Virus record (IMG/VR): IMGVR_UViG_2740892488_000007
Length of the DNA stretch: 29,943 nucleotides
From: a virus
Lineage: Duplodnaviria; Heunggongvirae; Uroviricota; Caudoviricetes
Reading direction: 5' to 3' (one strand)
The position numbers and the translations under genes were made by a program. Below, piece after piece: positions 3,510-9,092 of the stretch. The stretch's first letter is position 1; each line of letters begins with the position of its first letter. Below the pieces are notes generated by a model. It was given only the letters and a program-made list of their open reading frames with translations, made no database searches and was not told where the DNA came from.

Positions 3510-5775
3510 AGCCTCCGGGCGTTTTGTCCCTCCGTCAGCATTTGCCGCAGGCACCGGTAAGGCGTTTACCGGTGCTTATGCATGGAACGCGCCACGCGAG
3601 GCTGTCGGGCGCGAAAGACCCCTTACACGTGACGAGATGCGTCAGGTGCAAGGGGTTTTATCCACGATTAACCGCCTGCCTTACTTTTTGCGCTCGCTGT
3701 TTACTTCACGCTATGACTACATCCGGCGCAATAAAAGCCCGGTGCACGGGTTTTATTTTCTCACATCCACTTTTCAGCGTCGTTTATGGCCGCGCATTGA
3801 GCGTGTGAATCAGCGCCATGAAATGAACACCGACGCGTCGTTGCTGTTTCTGGCAGAGCGTGGCCATTATGCGCGTCTGCCGGGGATGAATGACAAGGAG
3901 CTGAAAAAGTTTGCCGCCCGTATCTCATCGCAGCTTTTCATGATGTATGAGGAACTCTGCGATGCCTGGGTGGATGCGCATGGCGAAAAAGAATCGCTGT
4001 TTACGGATGAGGCGCAGGCTCACCTCTATGGTCATGTTGCTGGTGCTGCACGTGCTTTCAATATTTCCCCTCTCTACTGGAAAAAATACCGTAAAGGGCA
4101 GATGACCACGAGGCAGGCATATTCTGCCATTGCCCGTCTGTTTAACGATGAGTGGTGGACCCATCAGCTTAAAGGCCAGCGTATGCGCTGGCATGAGGCG
4201 TTACTGATTGCTGTCGGGGAGGTCAATAAAGACCGTTCTCCTTATGCCAGTAAACATGCCATTCGTGATGTGCGTGCACGCCGCCAGGCAAATCTGGAAT
4301 TTCTTAAATCGTGTGATCTCGAAAACAGGGAAACCGGCGAGCGCATCGACCTTATCAGTAAGGTGATGGGCAGTATTTCTAATCCTGAAATTCGCCGGAT
4401 GGAGCTGATGAACACCATTGCCGGTATTGAGCGTTACGCCGCAGCAGAGGGTGATGTGGGGATGTTTATCACGCTGACCGCGCCGTCAAAGTATCACCCG
4501 ACACGTCAGGTCAGAAAAGGCGAAAGTAAAACCGTCCAGCTAAATCACGGCTGGAACGATGAGGCATTTAATCCAAAGGATGCGCAGCGTTATCTCTGCC
4601 GTATCTGGAGCCTGATGCGCACGGCATTCAAGGATAATGATTTACAGGTCTACGGTTTGCGTGTCGTCGAGCCACACCACGACGGAACGCCGCACTGGCA
4701 TATGATGCTTTTTTGTAATCCGCGCCAGCGTAACCAGATTATCGAAATCATGCGTCGCTATGCGCTCAAAGAGGATGGCGACGAAAGAGGAGCCGCGCGA
4801 AACCGTTTTCAGGCAAAACACCTTAACCGGGGCGGTGCTGCGGGGTATATCGCGAAATACATCTCAAAAAACATCGACGGCTATGCACTGGATGGTCAGC
4901 TCGATAACGATACCGGCAGGCCGCTGAAAGACACTGCTGCGGCTGTTACCGCATGGGCGTCAACGTGGCGCATCCCGCAATTTAAAACGGTTGGTCTGCC
5001 GACAATGGGGGCTTACCGTGAACTACGCAAATTGCCGCGCGGCGTCAGCATTGCTGATGAGTTTGACGAGCGCGTCGAGGCTGCACGCGCCGCCGCAGAC
5101 AGTGGTGATTTTGCGTTGTATATCAGCGCGCAGGGTGGGGCAAATGTCCCGCGCGATTGTCAGACTGTCAGGGTCGCCCGTAGCCCGTCGGATGACGTTA
5201 ACGAGTACGAGGAAGAGGTCGAGAGGGTGGTCGGCATTTACGCGCCGCATCTCGGCGCGCGTCATATTCATATCACCAGAACGACGGACTGGCGCATTGT
5301 GCCGAAAGTTCCGGTCGTTGAGCCTTTGACTTTAAAAAGCGGCATCGCCGCGCCTCGGAGTCCTGTCAATAACTGTGGAAAGCTCACCGGTGGTGATACT
5401 TCGTTACCGGCTCCCACACCTTCTGAGCACGCCGCAGCAGTGCTTAATCTGGTTGATGACGATGTTATCGAATGGAATGACCCGGAGGTCGTGAGGGCGC
5501 TCAGGGGCGCATTAAAACACGACCGGAGAACGCCAAACCGTCAGCAAAGAAACGGAAGCCCGTTAAAACCGCATGAAATTGCACCATCGGCCAGACTGAC
5601 CCGGTCGGAACGATTGCAAATTACCCGTATCCGCGTTGATCTCGCTCAGAACGGTATCAGGCCGCAACGATGGGAGCTTGAGGCGCTGGCGCGTGGCGCG
5701 ACCGTAAATTATGACGGGAAACCTTTCACTTATCAGGTCGCTGATGATTGGCCGGGATTTTTGTTACCCATTTGA
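3499..5775 (+). CDS. A: rolling-circle replication initiator (P2 gpA-like)
   Basis: Long ORF (758 aa from ATG at 3499; the track ORF opens at 3457). HUH-type motif PHWHMMLF and tyrosine pair GYIAKYISK. Length near the 761 aa of P2 A. Confidence 0.9.
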   Translation: MAVKASGRFVPPSAFAAGTGKAFTGAYAWNAPREAVGRERPLTRDEMRQVQGVLSTINRLPYFLRSLFTSRYDYIRRNKSPVHGFYFLTSTFQRRLWPRIERVNQRHEMNTDASLLFLAERGHYARLPGMNDKELKKFAARISSQLFMMYEELCDAWVDAHGEKESLFTDEAQAHLYGHVAGAARAFNISPLYWKKYRKGQMTTRQAYSAIARLFNDEWWTHQLKGQRMRWHEALLIAVGEVNKDRSPYASKHAIRDVRARRQANLEFLKSCDLENRETGERIDLISKVMGSISNPEIRRMELMNTIAGIERYAAAEGDVGMFITLTAPSKYHPTRQVRKGESKTVQLNHGWNDEAFNPKDAQRYLCRIWSLMRTAFKDNDLQVYGLRVVEPHHDGTPHWHMMLFCNPRQRNQIIEIMRRYALKEDGDERGAARNRFQAKHLNRGGAAGYIAKYISKNIDGYALDGQLDNDTGRPLKDTAAAVTAWASTWRIPQFKTVGLPTMGAYRELRKLPRGVSIADEFDERVEAARAAADSGDFALYISAQGGANVPRDCQTVRVARSPSDDVNEYEEEVERVVGIYAPHLGARHIHITRTTDWRIVPKVPVVEPLTLKSGIAAPRSPVNNCGKLTGGDTSLPAPTPSEHAAAVLNLVDDDVIEWNDPEVVRALRGALKHDRRTPNRQQRNGSPLKPHEIAPSARLTRSERLQITRIRVDLAQNGIRPQRWELEALARGATVNYDGKPFTYQVADDWPGFLLPI

Positions 5776-6035
5776 GTAAAAATACAGCGTGATTTTATAT
5801 GTCTTTGAATGGATTATGCGAAGCACCTCTAAGGTAGATGAGGAGCAATAGCGTGTTGAATCAGAAGGCTAAATTGTATTGAATCGTTAGCATGTAATTG
5901 AAGGCAGCTATTTGATTCGAGTCATAAAAGAGCATCTATTTCGGTTAATAAAACCATTGCGAGTGACTTTATGTCGAAGCATAATTCATCTCGAGCGAAG
6001 TCTTGCTAGTCTTTCATCGGATTGATGACGGGCGC

Positions 6036-6067
6036 AAAAAAAACCACCCTGGCAGGTGGTTTTTTTT
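6036..6067. terminator. bidirectional rho-independent terminator
   Basis: A8 (6036-6043), stem CCACC (6044-6048), loop CTGGCA, stem GGTGG (6055-6059), T8 (6060-6067). Works in both orientations; lies after gene A on + and 12 nt after the stop of the 37-aa ORF on -. Confidence 0.65.
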
Positions 6068-6079
6068 GTTTGAAGCATA

Positions 6080-6193
6080 CTAAAGAAAAATACTTACATG
6101 GATATTACTGACGTTTACTGACAAACCACTCGGACTACCATATGGATAGCCAAAGAGGGCCAGAACGAGAATGCAGTAATAGCACTTCTTCAT
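6080..6193 (-). CDS. 37-aa hydrophobic small protein (type I toxin-like peptide)
   Basis: ATG at 6193-6191 preceded by a perfect AGGAGG (reverse complement of 6197-6202), TAG stop at 6082-6080. Translation MKKCYYCILVLALFGYPYGSPSGLSVNVSNIHVSIFL: Lys-Lys N-terminus followed by a hydrophobic stretch. Terminator follows immediately. Too short to appear in the ORF track. Confidence 0.5.
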   Translation of the reverse strand: MKKCYYCILVLALFGYPYGSPSGLSVNVSNIHVSIFL

Positions 6194-6848
6194 ATCGCCT
6201 CCTGTAAGCAGAGGGCAATTTCCGCCGATATATGCGCTTCTAAGGCGGAGTGACTATTGAGCGAAGTCTTGCCCTGAAATAATGCTCTGTTTAAACGCAA
6301 AGTGATCTGGCATATCACCGAACAGAGGACCTGAACAACACAACATATAGTATGTCGTTGTTTCTGGTTGCATTTTATGTTGTGTAATACTGGTTTTGCA
6401 TCAAGGATGTTTGAGCTTTTTTTGATATAGCTCAAAGTAAAAAGCAGAGACTACGGATGATAAGGTCTTGAAAGCAATGTAAATTTTTTAAAGTTGTGAG
6501 TGGCTAGAAATGCACAGTTTCAATATGGCGGATTTAAACAAGTAATTAAAAATAGCGACATAAATTCCAATAAAATCATTAAGTTGCGTTTTCTGTGGAA
6601 ACTTCGGTGACTCTGAAATTTTCTTTTAGTGTCGCTGAGGTTTAACAACGCGCTGCGCAAGTAGTTAGTGTTTTTTTAACTCAATATTCTGATTTATAAG
6701 GTTTTTTATAAATCGTGGACTGGTTGCGCGTATTCATCTCGTGTTATCAGCAAAGATAAGCTCTATATGCAGAACGGAATGCATATATGATGTCGAAAAT
6801 GTTATGGGAAAACGTGGATTAGTGTTATAGTAATGGCTGAAAAACAGC

Positions 6849-6877
6849 CTTGACATAAAATAACAACTGTGATATGG
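6849..6877 (+). promoter_or_regulatory. putative sigma70-like promoter for the ImmA-like gene
   Basis: Perfect -35 TTGACA at 6849-6854, 17-bp spacer, weak -10 TATGGC at 6872-6877; about 40 bp upstream of the AGGAGG RBS at 6905-6910. Confidence 0.3.
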
Positions 6878-6915
6878 CTGTGCATACTTAACTTTTTTTA
6901 ACGTAGGAGGCAACC

Positions 6916-7401
6916 ATGAGCTATGCAGCTAAAAAACTGCTTGACCGCTATTGGGATCGCCGACTACCTGTCGATCCGTTTAAGCTTGCTAAAGCGTGGG
7001 GTGCTCGTGTTGAAGCACTTGAGGAATCGGCTTATAACAACGATGGGTTAAGCGGTCTGGCTGTCATCAAAAAGGGTGTCCATAGGATTTATTTTGATTC
7101 TAGTGAACATTCTAATCGTCAACGTTTTACTGTTGCACACGAGTTAGGTCATCATGTGCTGGGGCATACCCAGGACGGAGAGTACCATCGGGATAATGTC
7201 GGGAATTATTCAACAGGTGCTCGTGATTACCGTGAGGTTGAAGCAAACAAGTTTGCTGCTGAGTTGTTAATGCCTGAGTCTGCTATACGTCAATTGGTAT
7301 CCAGAGAAGGTATTGATAGCACTTTGAGATTAGCAAGCATCTTTAATGTATCAGAAGCCGCTATGCATTGGCGCTTAAAGAGCTTAGGAATGGCTTATTA
7401 A
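6916..7401 (+). CDS. ImmA/IrrE-family (HEXXH) zinc metallopeptidase, standalone
   Basis: 161-aa ORF with AGGAGG RBS and ATG at 6916. HEXXH motif HELGHHVLGH and downstream EVEANKFAAELLMPE, the signature of ImmA/IrrE-type peptidases. No HTH domain in this ORF. Confidence 0.7.
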   Translation: MSYAAKKLLDRYWDRRLPVDPFKLAKAWGARVEALEESAYNNDGLSGLAVIKKGVHRIYFDSSEHSNRQRFTVAHELGHHVLGHTQDGEYHRDNVGNYSTGARDYREVEANKFAAELLMPESAIRQLVSREGIDSTLRLASIFNVSEAAMHWRLKSLGMAY

Positions 7402-7467: not shown

Positions 7468-8067
7468 ATGGCTGATATTGATTTATCTGGACAGTCCCCA
7501 GAGCAAGGAACCACTCCTAAGGGCGATTCAGATCCTGATATCCTTATAAGGCGAGATAGACGGGATGGTATAGAGCGTAGAAGTATGCGATTAGTGCTCT
7601 CTGCCGTTGTGCTTTGTTTTGCTTGTACATTTCTATGGCAGGGGCTTAACTTTGCTTTGGCTGTTGGAAATGGCTTGCTGGAAGCGAAAAGCAGTATTGC
7701 CGCAGCGATAACACAAAAAGTAGATACACAAACTTGTGTTTCAGCAGAAAAATGTTCTGCTTTATCTTCGGATCCGAAGATGGCTGATGAGAGGATAACA
7801 CCATCTTCAGACACTAATAAAGTTAGAAAATCTATTTCTGGTTTATCCACCGATTGGTTATCGGCCAGTTCTCTAATAGCTATTGTTGCATTCATCCTTG
7901 GTGTGGGTTTAACTTTGCTTTTGACTCTTCTTAAATCAGCATTTCAACACCCGACAGATAAAGACTTTAGAACAAAGTCGACATCTAATACTATTGAGTT
8001 GGCCACGCCAATCAGTGAATTAATAATTGGTGTTCTGAATATAATTAAAGACAAACTATCTAAGTAA
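7468..8067 (+). CDS. small membrane protein with two predicted transmembrane helices
   Basis: 199-aa ORF. Charged N-terminus, hydrophobic segment LVLSAVVLCFACTFLWQGLNFALAV, polar middle, second hydrophobic segment LIAIVAFILGVGLTLLLTLL. AT-rich codon usage unlike the phage backbone. The start may instead be the internal Met at 7585. Confidence 0.55.
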   Translation: MADIDLSGQSPEQGTTPKGDSDPDILIRRDRRDGIERRSMRLVLSAVVLCFACTFLWQGLNFALAVGNGLLEAKSSIAAAITQKVDTQTCVSAEKCSALSSDPKMADERITPSSDTNKVRKSISGLSTDWLSASSLIAIVAFILGVGLTLLLTLLKSAFQHPTDKDFRTKSTSNTIELATPISELIIGVLNIIKDKLSK

Positions 8068-8351: not shown

Positions 8352-9092
8352 TCATTGCGGATGTTTGTAATGTTTTTTTTTGCCTGTAACCCATGATGGT
8401 CGTGGTATTCCATAAGTTTTGCAGATCCACTTCAAGCGCCTGGAGTGATTTAGAGTCTTTTCTGTACACTTGTTCTTTTCTGCCCATGTTAAAGCAAAGC
8501 AACTATCCAGTGCCATATAAAGATACTGGAATTTTTCGAAGCTAAGGTATTGTGGGTTTTGGGATAAAAATAGTGCATGCACTATTGCTGCTATATTTAT
8601 TGGTGCGTGTTTGGTTTTTGTCTCGCTAGACATGTATTTGAGTGCTAATTCTATAACCTCTTTTTCAGAGCACTTGACCAGAATAAAGTCAGTTAATTTG
8701 CTGGGTTTTATTGGGGTTGCGTCTAAAAAACCGGCATCAGTAGTTGTTAATCTTATCCCTTTGAAAAAAGACAGACACCACACAGCAAAATTGAGAGTTT
8801 CTAGTGAAGATGTATTTTTTAATTTTAGTGAGTGTGTTTTGGGTAAGCCAAATACTCGTTGGCTAAAAGGCATTGTGGATATGCCTCCATTGAGGTTATA
8901 TACTTCTTGGTTTCCTGGGTATATCCAACCGTTAATAACATTTCTGTGATTGTTTATAAGATTTGTTTTTTCCGCTAGACCGGGTAAAGTAAGTAAAGAA
9001 AAATCATCAGTTTCAACGTTAACTTCTACTGGATAGTATCCAAACTCAGCTTCAATATCATTGGATTGCTGTTCGTCAACTTTACCTTGCAT
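8352..9092 (-). CDS. hypothetical protein (hotspot cargo); frame may continue to 8150 through an A9 tract
   Basis: 246-aa ORF with ATG at 9092-9090 and GGAG RBS. No motif I recognise. AT-rich. The C-terminus ...GKKKHYKHPQ runs through A9 on the coding strand (T9 at 8373-8381 on +); with A8 the frame would continue for 73 more codons to the stop at 8150. Confidence 0.5.
   Translation of the reverse strand: MQGKVDEQQSNDIEAEFGYYPVEVNVETDDFSLLTLPGLAEKTNLINNHRNVINGWIYPGNQEVYNLNGGISTMPFSQRVFGLPKTHSLKLKNTSSLETLNFAVWCLSFFKGIRLTTTDAGFLDATPIKPSKLTDFILVKCSEKEVIELALKYMSSETKTKHAPINIAAIVHALFLSQNPQYLSFEKFQYLYMALDSCFALTWAEKNKCTEKTLNHSRRLKWICKTYGIPRPSWVTGKKKHYKHPQ

Follow-up and report, generated by a model that had tools for sequence, protein, structure and literature searches.

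The window, as we call the whole 29,943-nucleotide stretch of phage DNA that was analysed, contains a conserved block of about 580 bp beside the replication gene of a P2-like prophage. The block, hereafter the module, combines a predicted small RNA (sRNA) gene on the plus strand with a convergent peptide gene on the minus strand, a terminator shared by the two, a long leader in front of the peptide gene and an nrdD-type promoter (Table 1). It is not annotated at this site. RefSeq shows no annotation in the 1.1-kb gap that holds the module, none of the plasmid records listed annotates it, and a literature search found no paper naming its sequences.

Table 1. Features of the module, in window coordinates.
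Feature	Position	Strand	Details
Whole conserved module	5912-6490		sRNA gene, shared terminator, peptide gene, leader, nrdD-type promoter
Predicted sigma-70 promoter of sRNA	5957-5985	+	-35 TTGCGA 5957-5962, 17-bp spacer, -10 CATAAT 5980-5985; promoter scan
Predicted antisense sRNA, ~75-84 nt	5992-6075	+	5' recognition segment 5992-6008, variable hairpin 6009-6033, terminator hairpin and U tail 6035-6075
Repeat copy 1, GAGCGAAGTCTTGC	5993-6006	+	5' end of predicted sRNA, begins at predicted +1; segment 84% conserved across family
Bidirectional intrinsic terminator common to both transcripts	6035-6068		loop CUGGCA on sRNA, UGCCAG on mRNA
37-codon peptide gene (candidate toxin)	6080-6193	-	encodes MKKCYYCILVLALFGYPYGSPSGLSVNVSNIHVSIFL
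Anti-SD hairpin holding the SD	6197-6216	-	GCCCUCUG-CUUA-CAGGAGGC; fold prediction
Shine-Dalgarno sequence (SD) AGGAGG	6198-6203	-	4 nt before ATG
Leader hairpin H2	6221-6249	-	compensatory changes in 4/7 pairs
Predicted sRNA target site in leader	6258-6274	-	holds repeat copy 2 (6259-6272); 65-81 nt upstream of AUG; 90% conserved across family
Leader hairpin H1	6285-6327	-	changes on both sides in 6/12 pairs
Predicted transcription start of peptide mRNA	6364-6365	-	5' UTR ~172 nt, mRNA ~330 nt; register with mapped E. coli nrdDG promoter
-10 TAAAAT (6372-6377) and two NrdR-box-like 16-mers	6338-6385	-	6338-6353, 14/16 to consensus; 6370-6385, 12/16; 16 bp apart
FNR site 1 TTGATGCAAAACCA (6391-6404) and FNR site 2 TTGAGCTATATCAA (6422-6435)	6391-6435	-	31 bp centre to centre

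The module is about 95% identical to phage P2DC1, with flanks that are 65-80% identical, and positions 5912-6486 matched 387 plasmids at about 72% identity in a BLAST search. Among 5426 complete E. coli genomes, 163 carry it in P2-like prophages; E. coli W (NC_017664, around 2,327,756-2,328,174) and E24377A are two such strains. Other carriers are about 400 Klebsiella IncF plasmids, Salmonella plasmids, Kluyvera, Leclercia, Enterobacter and IMG/VR phage contigs. On conjugative plasmids of Klebsiella and Salmonella, the module is bordered by differing genes and IS elements. Matching E. coli records span both the sRNA and the ORF regions in 152 of 164 cases, and no locus with the ORF but without a matching sRNA was seen among those found. 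Comparison of these carriers indicates that the module moves between phages and plasmids as one unit. It forms the inner edge of the P2 cargo hotspot and is worth masking or annotating when defence islands are mined.

A search of other P2-like hotspots for the peptide and for a 14-nt direct repeat had been suggested in an earlier note on this DNA, and both proved to be conserved across the module homologues. Part of the family was gathered by searching for the terminator core together with GCATAAT, so that the invariance of these two elements is by construction there; the terminator also shows no differences among the three subfamilies that BLAST recovered or in the phage contigs anchored on repeat copy 2. 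A genome scan with the terminator core returned 37 matches, most of them without the peptide, and only three (L027, L028 and L029) were family members. Unrelated phyla contributed many of the matches, as short contigs of about 2.5 kb. The hairpin core also adjoins a ColE1-type origin in small plasmids, and the hairpin does so in L015, one terminator-core match that was inspected.

The peptide gene and its nrdD-type promoter

The earlier note had proposed a hidden small-protein gene, a 37-aa minus-strand ORF preceded by a perfect AGGAGG, and both elements are present. The ORF is intact in 20 of 20 distinct variants, with 37-39 codons and the stop at the same place. Its dN/dS amounts to 0.21-0.33 against relatives at dS 0.7-1.2, and extra states at the three codon positions number 44, 27 and 66, third positions varying most. 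Of ten versions examined, nine retain both SD and ATG; L027 has only AGGA. An untranslated frame would not be expected to show so low a dN/dS, a constant length and SD conservation. By this comparison the ORF is coding and under purifying selection, and the proposal of a hidden gene is borne out to that extent.

In the family alignment, the peptide consists of a basic N-terminus, a hydrophobic core of 13-16 residues and a polar uncharged tail. The hydrophobic stretch is shorter than a standard transmembrane helix. A single-sequence AlphaFold model was of modest confidence (pLDDT 68). Searches of Pfam and NCBIfam with the peptides gave no family match; at E <= 10 in NCBIfam, all eight family members searched, including the window peptide, were without a match, and TimP controls scored 87 and 48 bits. 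When 1.84 billion representatives were searched with phmmer, eight matches were obtained, of which the six that were fetched belong to the peptide family and the other two are proteins of about 500 aa. The peptide family thus appears narrow and without a named relative in the phmmer search.

The promoter region of the peptide gene matched the treC-nrdD intergenic region in a BLAST search (E = 2e-19), and homology to PnrdD extends throughout the family (69-88% over 72 bp). The stretch holding the FNR sites is identical in 43 of 44 bases to the published K-12 nrdDG promoter fragment (PMC10425943), and the mapped E. coli nrdDG promoter has its FNR sites centred at -33.5 and -64.5 (PMC10425943). 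The 31-bp FNR spacing, the TAAAAT register and the NrdR-box-like palindromes are common to the module and the nrdDG (anaerobic ribonucleotide reductase) promoters of E. coli and Salmonella (PMC10425943; PMC12176259), but in the module this promoter stands on mobile DNA and is followed by a 37-codon ORF, not by nrdDG. On the scale used in Table 1, the K-12 nrdDG NrdR boxes reach 13/16. In the window, NrdR box 1 is degenerate at its canonical position, the better-scoring boxes lying about 11 bp away from where nrdD has them; a stronger, near-canonical box 1, CACTATATATAGAAC, is found in other family members (L054, L078 and L013). We saw no LexA box by eye in leader or promoter. Taken by its sequence, the peptide-mRNA promoter is a homologue of PnrdD with both FNR boxes. 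The earlier note, which looked for an mRNA start upstream of 6272, needs correcting in that the predicted start lies about 93 nt upstream of that position, at the nrdD-type promoter.

A predicted convergent small RNA and its probable pairing with the leader

The 14-nt repeat has two matches in the window, at 5993-6006 and 6259-6272, and these remain the sole matches when one mismatch is allowed. Chance expectation is 0.02, and none of 100 shuffles gave two matches; the repeat is far beyond chance. Both copies persist even in homologues whose overall identity is just 50-70%. In nine of the ten loci examined the copies keep fixed positions: about 50 nt separate one from the terminator core, which follows it, and about 64 nt separate the other from the ATG. 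The exception is L027, where an insertion has displaced the sRNA copy to a distance of 1.1 kb; even there, this copy has its own terminator copy and still matches the target.

Across the family the two copies change together, from GAGCGAAGTCTTGC to GAGCAAAGCCTTAC; subfamily C has G5A, T9C and G13A in both copies and L078 has C to T in both, a covariation that may reflect as few as two evolutionary events. Where only one copy differs, four of five differences are G·U-compatible for an sRNA read from the plus strand and an mRNA read from the minus strand (copy 1 T with copy 2 C in three lineages, copy 1 G with copy 2 A in one lineage), and neither of the two disruptive transition types was found among the one-sided differences. 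By this comparison the two copies are kept complementary.

A plus-strand RNA with its own conserved promoter and a +1 at the start of the repeat is predicted. Its -35 element reads TTGCG(A/G/T) in 16 of 19 distinct variants and TTGCCT or TTGTCT in the other three, and it never served as a search criterion; both promoters of the module are conserved across the family. The predicted fold of the sRNA has an energy of -32.8 kcal/mol (z = -4.3). Most of the ten representatives folded have the same three-part architecture, with a middle hairpin that is only 42% identical. The bidirectional terminator described close to the ORF was confirmed: its arms (6035-6048 and 6055-6068) are 14 nt long and 100% complementary, A and T runs lie on both sides, and it ends 11 nt from the stop codon. 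Rfam searches of the whole window at gathering thresholds gave no match. At E <= 10 we obtained only sub-threshold matches (RNAI, Phe leader and OrzO-P) centred on the terminator hairpin; those to ColE1 RNA I (RF00106) scored 26.8 and 21 bits against a gathering threshold of 47, and their alignments likewise centre on this hairpin.

We calculated pairing as the site-specific duplex energy plus the opening energies, since whole-molecule RNAduplex runs gave over-extended, uninformative duplexes little better than shuffles. In the window the predicted sRNA-target duplex comprises 14 Watson-Crick pairs and one U·G and has an energy of -28.9 kcal/mol, or -16.6 kcal/mol net of opening costs. Other family members have 16-18 nt of pairing, and for five subfamily representatives we obtained net energies between -16 and -25 kcal/mol.

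The earlier note had envisaged a plus-strand RNA antisense to the leader over 14+8 nt. For the 14-mer, complementarity of the leader to a short convergent plus-strand RNA is supported by covarying copies, strand-correct wobbles and a conserved promoter. The 8-mer GAGTGACT does occur at 5961-5968 and 6248-6255, but it is not conserved; Klebsiella-plasmid homologues have GGGTCTAT at the site of copy 1 and GAACGACT at that of copy 2. In the window, copy 1 falls on the -35 hexamer and the spacer of the promoter predicted for the sRNA. It would therefore lie outside the sRNA, and the complementarity would not extend to 14+8.

The minus-strand leader is a conserved structured RNA in its own right. 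In the leader alignment, 93% of cells are paired compared with 40-50% for slid controls; ten pairs have changes on both sides, and 0 of 500 shuffles reached the observed covariation score. The UGCCA loop of H1 (6308-6312) is invariant in 16 of 16 aligned leaders and complementary to the terminator loop of the sRNA. The anti-SD hairpin and a long-range helix, H4, were assessed per sequence, since helices shift register between subfamilies. By prediction, each representative would need 6-16 kcal/mol to open the region from SD to AUG. With the target blocked, the predicted SD opening cost rises in nine of ten full-length mRNAs. The predicted effect of pairing on SD accessibility is modest (-0.1 to +4.6 kcal/mol), and the site is far from the ribosome-binding site.

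Relation to known type I systems

Two general features of type I toxin-antitoxin (TA) systems recur in the module: a gene for a small (<60 aa) hydrophobic peptide, here of 37-39 aa with a core of 13-16 residues, and a predicted sRNA that would be complementary to the candidate-toxin mRNA over 14-18 covarying nucleotides. The layout had been compared with those of zorO/orzO and tisB/istR. However, these pairs are divergent with the sRNA upstream, whereas the genes here are convergent and share a terminator, as in par/Fst, so that the comparison of layouts was abandoned.

In par/Fst-RNA II of Enterococcus faecalis pAD1 and its Gram-positive relatives, promoters converge on a shared bidirectional terminator, complementary loops are present in both RNAs, and direct repeats transcribed in opposite directions form a second pairing region (PMC7472228); the module is alike in each respect. 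The two are also alike in sequestering the SD in an intramolecular stem-loop, in a peptide length of about 33-37 aa and in residing on mobile elements (PMC7472228). In par/Fst, contact begins as kissing of the terminator loops with a YUNR U-turn. The predicted sRNA loop here, CUGGCA, includes the YUNR-compatible CUGG and is complementary to the mRNA terminator loop as well as to the H1 loop UGCCA, so that a similar contact may occur. The module peptide shows no similarity to Fst, with neither a PXXXG motif nor a charged C-terminal tail. The repeats of par/Fst overlap the translation initiation region, whereas the module repeat lies 65-81 nt upstream of the AUG, similarly in all members; par/Fst has two repeats and an sRNA of about 40 nt, compared with one functional repeat and about 75 nt here. 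Finally, par/Fst hosts are Gram-positive and the module host is enterobacterial. In T1TAdb, an antisense RNA on the 3' side is listed only for Gram-positive families (PMC8594479).

The peptide itself is most reminiscent of TimP, from timP/timR (ryfA) of Salmonella and E. coli, which has 38-41 aa, a basic N-terminus, a core that starts with C-x-C-I-[VL] and a polar N/S-rich tail, as here. The timP 5' UTR is 144 nt long compared with 172 nt, and the 5' end of timR pairs in the leader well upstream of the SD, as is predicted for the module sRNA. Translation of timP is controlled through a long-range interaction by which a hairpin sequestering the SD is opened (PMC7667032; PMC13000454), which resembles the predicted arrangement of H4 and anti-SD hairpin in the module leader. 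In contrast, timR is divergent and upstream with a different promoter, whereas the module sRNA is convergent, downstream and shares the terminator. We also considered kinship of the peptide with TimP and rejected it: the N-terminal resemblance is visible, but there was no match to NF040796 (toxic_TimP) and the hhalign probability was 6%. TimP is treated here as an analogue, not a relative, and Rfam RF00126 (ryfA) gave no match even at E <= 10.

The systems zorO/orzO, tisB/istR-1, dinQ/agrB and shoB/ohsC likewise have 14-18 nt of complementarity derived from a DNA direct repeat, an sRNA site that is remote from the SD within a long 5' UTR, and a toxin mRNA that is translationally inert as made. 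In families of the zorO/orzO type the sRNA gene lies upstream without mRNA overlap (PMC8594479). OrzO-P (RF02083) reached 17.2 bits against a gathering threshold of 60, on minus-strand positions 6036-6103 (terminator and ORF 3' end) and not on the sRNA strand. The promoters of tisB and dinQ are of the LexA type, whereas that of the module is of the nrdD type.

Proposed mechanism, alternative readings and implications

From the comparisons above, we consider it likely that the module is a self-contained type I TA-like system of a previously undescribed enterobacterial family. Weighing against this reading are the short hydrophobic stretch, the modest confidence of the peptide model, the lack of a peptide match to any toxin family in Pfam or NCBIfam, the distance of the pairing site from the ribosome-binding site and the modest predicted effect on SD accessibility. 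The minus-strand mRNA (about 330 nt, starting near 6364) would be made from the nrdD-type promoter, activated by FNR and possibly repressed by NrdR, and would comprise a structured leader of 172 nt, an SD buried in a local hairpin, the 37-codon ORF and the terminator. A plus-strand sRNA of about 75 nt would arise from a constitutive-looking promoter, start at 5992/5993 and end at the common terminator. Its first 15-17 nt would pair with leader nucleotides 92-108, perhaps after kissing of the terminator loop CUGGCA with the H1 loop UGCCA, and peptide synthesis would be blocked. Pairing might act by breaking the long-range helix between the 5' half of the target and the segment preceding the anti-SD, which would let the hairpin around the SD close fully, or by way of duplex cleavage. 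We infer the two transcripts, toxicity or membrane targeting of the peptide, repression by the sRNA and control by FNR/NrdR. The biological role may be stabilisation of the element or a growth arrest triggered by stress or infection.

The most serious alternative, which we nevertheless regard as unlikely, is that the module encodes a regulated small membrane protein with a repressor sRNA and is not a TA system. The peptide would then act in anaerobiosis or nucleotide stress, maybe by modulating a membrane protein as numerous small proteins do, and the sRNA would set the threshold of expression. An nrdD-type promoter suggests condition-specific expression over post-segregational killing, the hydrophobic segment is short, and for TimP, the closest analogue, cells deleted for timR can still grow when the peptide is expressed at its native level (PMC7667032). 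However, residence on mobile elements in many unrelated contexts is as for addiction or defence modules; toxic peptides are contained as a rule by burial of the SD, a tight terminator and an antisense RNA of their own, all of which the module combines; and the joint occurrence of sRNA and ORF described above also argues against this alternative.

Far less probable is that the plus strand serves chiefly as the terminator of the gpA early operon and the minus strand chiefly as a regulatory or noncoding RNA, with the ORF untranslated or a leader peptide. The hairpin is indeed the first intrinsic terminator downstream of gpA, and the leader is conserved as a structure, but the module also occurs on plasmids without gpA upstream. 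The selection on the ORF, its fixed length and its conserved SD speak against an untranslated frame, and a leader peptide would have nothing to regulate beyond the terminator, which comes straight after the stop codon. Least credible of all is that the repeats are scars of insertion or recombination (a target-site duplication or hotspot joint, or the ends of an inserted cassette as the earlier note had offered) with an incidental ORF and terminator: in L012, a P2-like prophage with different cargo, homology to the window does end inside copy 1, at about 6001, so that a recombination joint can fall there, but both copies are internal to a module that recurs in unrelated plasmid contexts and extends beyond copy 1 by at least 45 nt on the left and beyond copy 2 by at least 200 nt on the right, the repeat covaries with strand-specific wobbles as its mismatches and persists with its halves 1.1 kb apart in L027, and the ORF is under purifying selection, so that we rejected scars as the main explanation.

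Returning to the TA-like reading, we offer a more specific version tentatively, as an idea with perhaps a minority chance of being right in full. The module could be an enterobacterial par-like TA system in which toxin transcription reports the loss of oxygen (through FNR) and a fall in dATP (through NrdR release), with the constitutive sRNA setting a threshold. Such a system, residing at the defence hotspot of P2 and on IncF plasmids of Klebsiella, could serve as a growth-arrest device triggered by nucleotide-pool changes or anaerobiosis, or as an abortive-infection or addiction device. Type I systems usually respond to LexA or stress sigma factors, and to our knowledge an FNR/NrdR input has not been described for any of them. 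The link to the nrdD promoter predicts induction by anaerobiosis, hydroxyurea or dNTP depletion, and loss of this induction in an fnr mutant.

If confirmed, the module would represent a new type I TA-like family missed by annotation, one carried by about 3% of complete E. coli genomes and by hundreds of clinical Klebsiella plasmids. It would connect a gene for a toxic peptide with the nrdD control region on which FNR and NrdR act, and it would extend the par/Fst design, with its convergent genes, shared terminator and direct repeats, beyond Gram-positive bacteria.

The small ORF and its genomic distribution

The window is a P2-like (Peduovirus) prophage in which the 1140 bp between the gpA and peptidase genes hold no RefSeq feature; the 37-aa ORF located there is annotated as hypothetical in one phage record. 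Both this minus-strand ORF and its AGGAGG Shine-Dalgarno (SD) sequence, described in the earlier note, are present at the positions it gave, as is a bidirectional terminator within 12 nt of the ORF, whose hairpin lies 11 nt from the stop codon.

Features of the module and its flanks in the window
Feature	Position	Strand	Remark
gpA, replication endonuclease gene	ends 5775		RefSeq annotation
Predicted sRNA promoter, TTGCGA-17-CATAAT	5957-5985	+	promoter scan
8-mer GAGTGACT	5961 and 6248		
14-nt direct repeat GAGCGAAGTCTTGC	starts 5993 and 6259		chance expectation 0.02
Terminator hairpin	arms 6035-6048 and 6055-6068		14 nt each, perfectly complementary, flanked by A and T runs
Small ORF	6080-6193	-	encodes MKKCYYCILVLALFGYPYGSPSGLSVNVSNIHVSIFL
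SD, AGGAGG	6198-6203	-	4 nt before ATG
-10 of peptide mRNA promoter, TAAAAT	6372-6377	-	same register as nrdDG
ImmA/IrrE-type peptidase gene, next annotated after gpA	starts 6916	+	

The peptide conservation that the earlier note had left to be checked was found across related loci: all 20 distinct ORF sequences are open over 37-39 codons with a constant stop position and an SD (mostly GGAGG) a few nt before the ATG. The dN/dS ratio is 0.21-0.33 (versus relatives at dS 0.7-1.2), and variability per codon position is 44/27/66. On these sequence grounds, the small ORF is a gene. Throughout the family, the peptide is basic at its N-terminus (MKK, MNR or MNRR), followed by a hydrophobic core that contains Cys (C-x-C-I-L-V-L-x-L-F-G-Y-P, or its equivalent in subfamily C, one branch of the family), then a G-x-x-S-x-W/L turn and finally a polar tail with alternating polar and aliphatic residues. 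Single-sequence AlphaFold predicted, with modest confidence (pLDDT 68), two helices separated by a Gly/Pro-rich turn. Pfam and NCBIfam searches with the peptides returned no family match, and exhaustive phmmer against 1.84 billion representatives found eight proteins, six of which were retrieved and belong to the module's peptide family, the other two being ~500-aa proteins.

The block at ~5876-6500 is ~95% identical to the related phage P2DC1, while the flanks on either side drop to 65-80%. It was found in 163 of 5426 complete E. coli genomes, in ~24 IMG/VR P2-like contigs and, at ~72% identity over window 5912-6486, on 387 PLSDB plasmids, almost all of them Klebsiella IncFIB/IncFII conjugative plasmids, where unrelated genes and IS elements flank it. 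Salmonella Newport IncF plasmids carry a third, more distant version, and more members occur in Kluyvera, Leclercia, one Enterobacter MAG and metagenomes; the comparison set comprised 30 distinct modules with 50-100% identity to the window. We read the region as a mobile module and not as residual intergenic sequence.

Several observations concern its surroundings. In the P2-like prophage of E. coli MFDS1001074 (L012 2394-2500), which has other hotspot cargo, similarity covers the sRNA promoter and continues for ~9 nt into the repeat before the sequences diverge, which places a recombination joint within the first repeat copy; the module thus forms the inner edge of the variable region. The ~400 bp from the module to the peptidase gene (6500-6915) are AT-rich and weakly conserved (~65-80% to P2DC1) except for the final ~120 bp; a weak Rfam match to mir-644 there (27 bits; gathering score 96) is almost certainly due to chance. 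The first cargo gene (6916-7401, +) encodes a CapP-like M78 (ImmA/IrrE) peptidase (PADLOC capP 1e-30; Pfam PF06114), and no adjoining HTH partner was found. The next two (7468-8067, +, and 8352-9092, -) gave no Pfam or PADLOC match; the latter may be disrupted in the window, since its longest ORF is 246 aa versus 313 aa in strain 1916D18. On the Klebsiella-type virulence plasmid pHvKP51-Vir-P15 (L004 5466-5603), ~1.2 kb separate the module from a gene annotated as the type I toxin DinQ, so that two type I-like loci are clustered.

The predicted sRNA and the direct repeat

With the predicted sRNA promoter, +1 falls on 5992/5993, where the repeat begins; in every subfamily, the repeat starts at the predicted +1. 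Its -35 element, never a search criterion, is TTGCG(A/G/T) in 16 of 19 distinct variants and TTGCCT or TTGTCT in three subfamily C members. The sRNA would measure 72-76 nt to the U tail (fold z-score -4.3) and consist of an open or weakly folded 17-nt 5' segment, a hairpin and the terminator. Identity across the family is 84% in the 5' segment and 96% in the terminator, with the proviso that members found via the terminator core or GCATAAT carry those elements by construction; an identical terminator nevertheless occurs in all of the three BLAST-found subfamilies and the phage contigs anchored on the leader copy of the repeat. The middle hairpin has 42% identity, yet a discrete hairpin was predicted in 8 of 10 representatives folded.

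The terminator core AAACCACCCTGGCAGGTGGTTT, sometimes in tandem, also adjoins a ColE1-type origin (GGATCTCAAGAAGATCC) in a 17.5-kb Klebsiella plasmid (L015 4049-4106), and it recurs in L043 and on many short contigs of ~2.5 kb (among L016-L051) in assemblies from unrelated phyla; these contigs are probably plasmid contamination. Rfam RNAI gave sub-threshold matches on the window hairpin.

The 14-nt direct repeat reported in the earlier note has just two matches in the window, even at one mismatch. Copy 1, at the predicted sRNA 5' end, lies ~50 nt before the terminator core, and copy 2, in the peptide mRNA leader, ~64 nt before the ATG in nine of ten loci examined. In the tenth (L027, an uncultured Enterobacter MAG; 4540-4650 and 5550-5800), the sRNA copy is displaced by a ~0.9 kb insertion between the two genes; the sRNA gene there retains its promoter, its own copy of the terminator, which thus occurs twice in the locus, and a 5' segment that matches the target exactly. 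Both copies are retained in related loci and change in concert between subfamilies, from GAGCGAAGTCTTGC in the window to TGAGCGAAGTCTTGCCA in Klebsiella, TGAGCGAAGTCTTGTCAC in L078 and TGAGCAAAGCCTTACC in subfamily C, where three substitutions each appear in both copies. One-sided changes were copy 1-T/copy 2-C (three lineages) and copy 1-G/copy 2-A (Kluyvera), exactly both transition combinations that yield G·U between copy 1 plus-strand RNA and copy 2 minus-strand RNA; neither disruptive transition combination was seen among the one-sided differences, and the sole exception is a G/T at the extreme edge of the 14-mer in one E. coli lineage. On this comparative evidence, the repeat is kept for RNA pairing. 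The alternative that the repeats mark the ends of an inserted cassette is wrong. The accompanying 8-mer is present, as the earlier note had it, but is not conserved, and its first copy falls within the sRNA promoter.

Leader structure and the nrdD-type promoter

Alignment of 16 distinct leaders supported two hairpins well (93% of cells paired versus 40-50% with slid partners); ten pairs changed on both sides, and none of 500 shuffles attained the covariation score observed. In hairpin H1 (6285-6327), the stems covary around an invariant loop, UGCCA (6308-6312), complementary to the sRNA terminator loop CUGGCA (6052-6057), which contains the YUNR-like CUGG. H1 with its 3' flank (stem-UGCCAG-stem-UUUGCG) resembles a degenerate terminator copy, so this part of the leader may descend from an ancient duplication of the sRNA gene. 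The SD lies within a local anti-SD hairpin, and opening the SD-to-AUG region is predicted to cost 6-16 kcal/mol in every representative. A long-range helix, H4, is predicted in 6 of 10 representatives between the target's 5' half and the stretch immediately preceding the anti-SD, and it shows compensatory differences between subfamilies. With the target blocked, the predicted SD opening cost rose in 9 of 10 full-length mRNAs (by 0.6 to 4.6 kcal/mol), and the sRNA-target duplex was predicted at -29 to -34 kcal/mol, or -16 to -25 kcal/mol net of opening costs.

Upstream, window 6345-6495 shares homology (E = 2e-19) with the intergenic region between treC and nrdD in E. coli and Salmonella. That region serves as promoter for the anaerobic ribonucleotide reductase operon and is oriented like the small ORF. 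Along minus strand 6439-6396, 43 of 44 positions are identical to a published K-12 nrdDG fragment that carries FNR sites 2 and 1, centred at -64.5 and -33.5 (PMC10425943). The register of the -10 element predicts an mRNA start at ~6364/6365, flanked by two NrdR-box-like palindromes (14/16 and 12/16, 16 bp apart); K-12 NrdR boxes score 13/16 on the same scale (PMC12176259). Across the family, PnrdD homology is 69-88% over 72 bp, several members have a near-canonical NrdR box 1, and every representative has a predicted 5' UTR of 155-179 nt. The E. coli phage version is nearer E. coli PnrdD (85% vs 76%), and most other members are nearer the Salmonella type (window 6345-6495, minus strand; L009 1380-1690; L010); there are hints that the module promoter was exchanged with, or tracks in parallel, that of the host.

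Proposed mechanism and relation to known systems

In our working model, the peptide mRNA would be transcribed conditionally and be closed to translation. A constitutive ~75-nt sRNA would pair by its 5' end with the leader of this mRNA, possibly after a loop-loop contact, and would hold the SD shut and/or mark the duplex for cleavage. The peptide would be made once mRNA synthesis exceeds the sRNA, or after loss of the element, as the shorter-lived RNA decays, and would then act on the membrane. The sequence-level steps were observed in the loci; we infer the transcripts, the repression, the toxicity and the control by FNR and NrdR.

The functionally closest system appears to be timP/timR, which shares peptide size and shape, a long leader, an sRNA that pairs far upstream through its 5' end, and a long-range SD switch (PMC7667032; PMC13000454); the module nevertheless failed the TimP HMM, the ryfA covariance model and profile comparison. 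With par/Fst it shares convergent promoters, a common bidirectional terminator, direct repeats read oppositely and an SD-sequestering stem-loop (PMC7472228), but membership is ruled out by the unrelated peptide and by a repeat that lies outside the initiation region. In T1TAdb, only Gram-positive families are listed with the asRNA on the 3' side; enterobacterial trans-type families are listed with it on the 5' side and no overlap (PMC8594479). Neither the 14-mer nor the peptide core was found in the literature searched. The type I toxin-antitoxin-like interpretation of the earlier note is right in substance. The most fitting description of the locus is a new family that varies the type I theme and is unusual in two ways: its layout is of Gram-positive style, and its control region is borrowed from nrdD.
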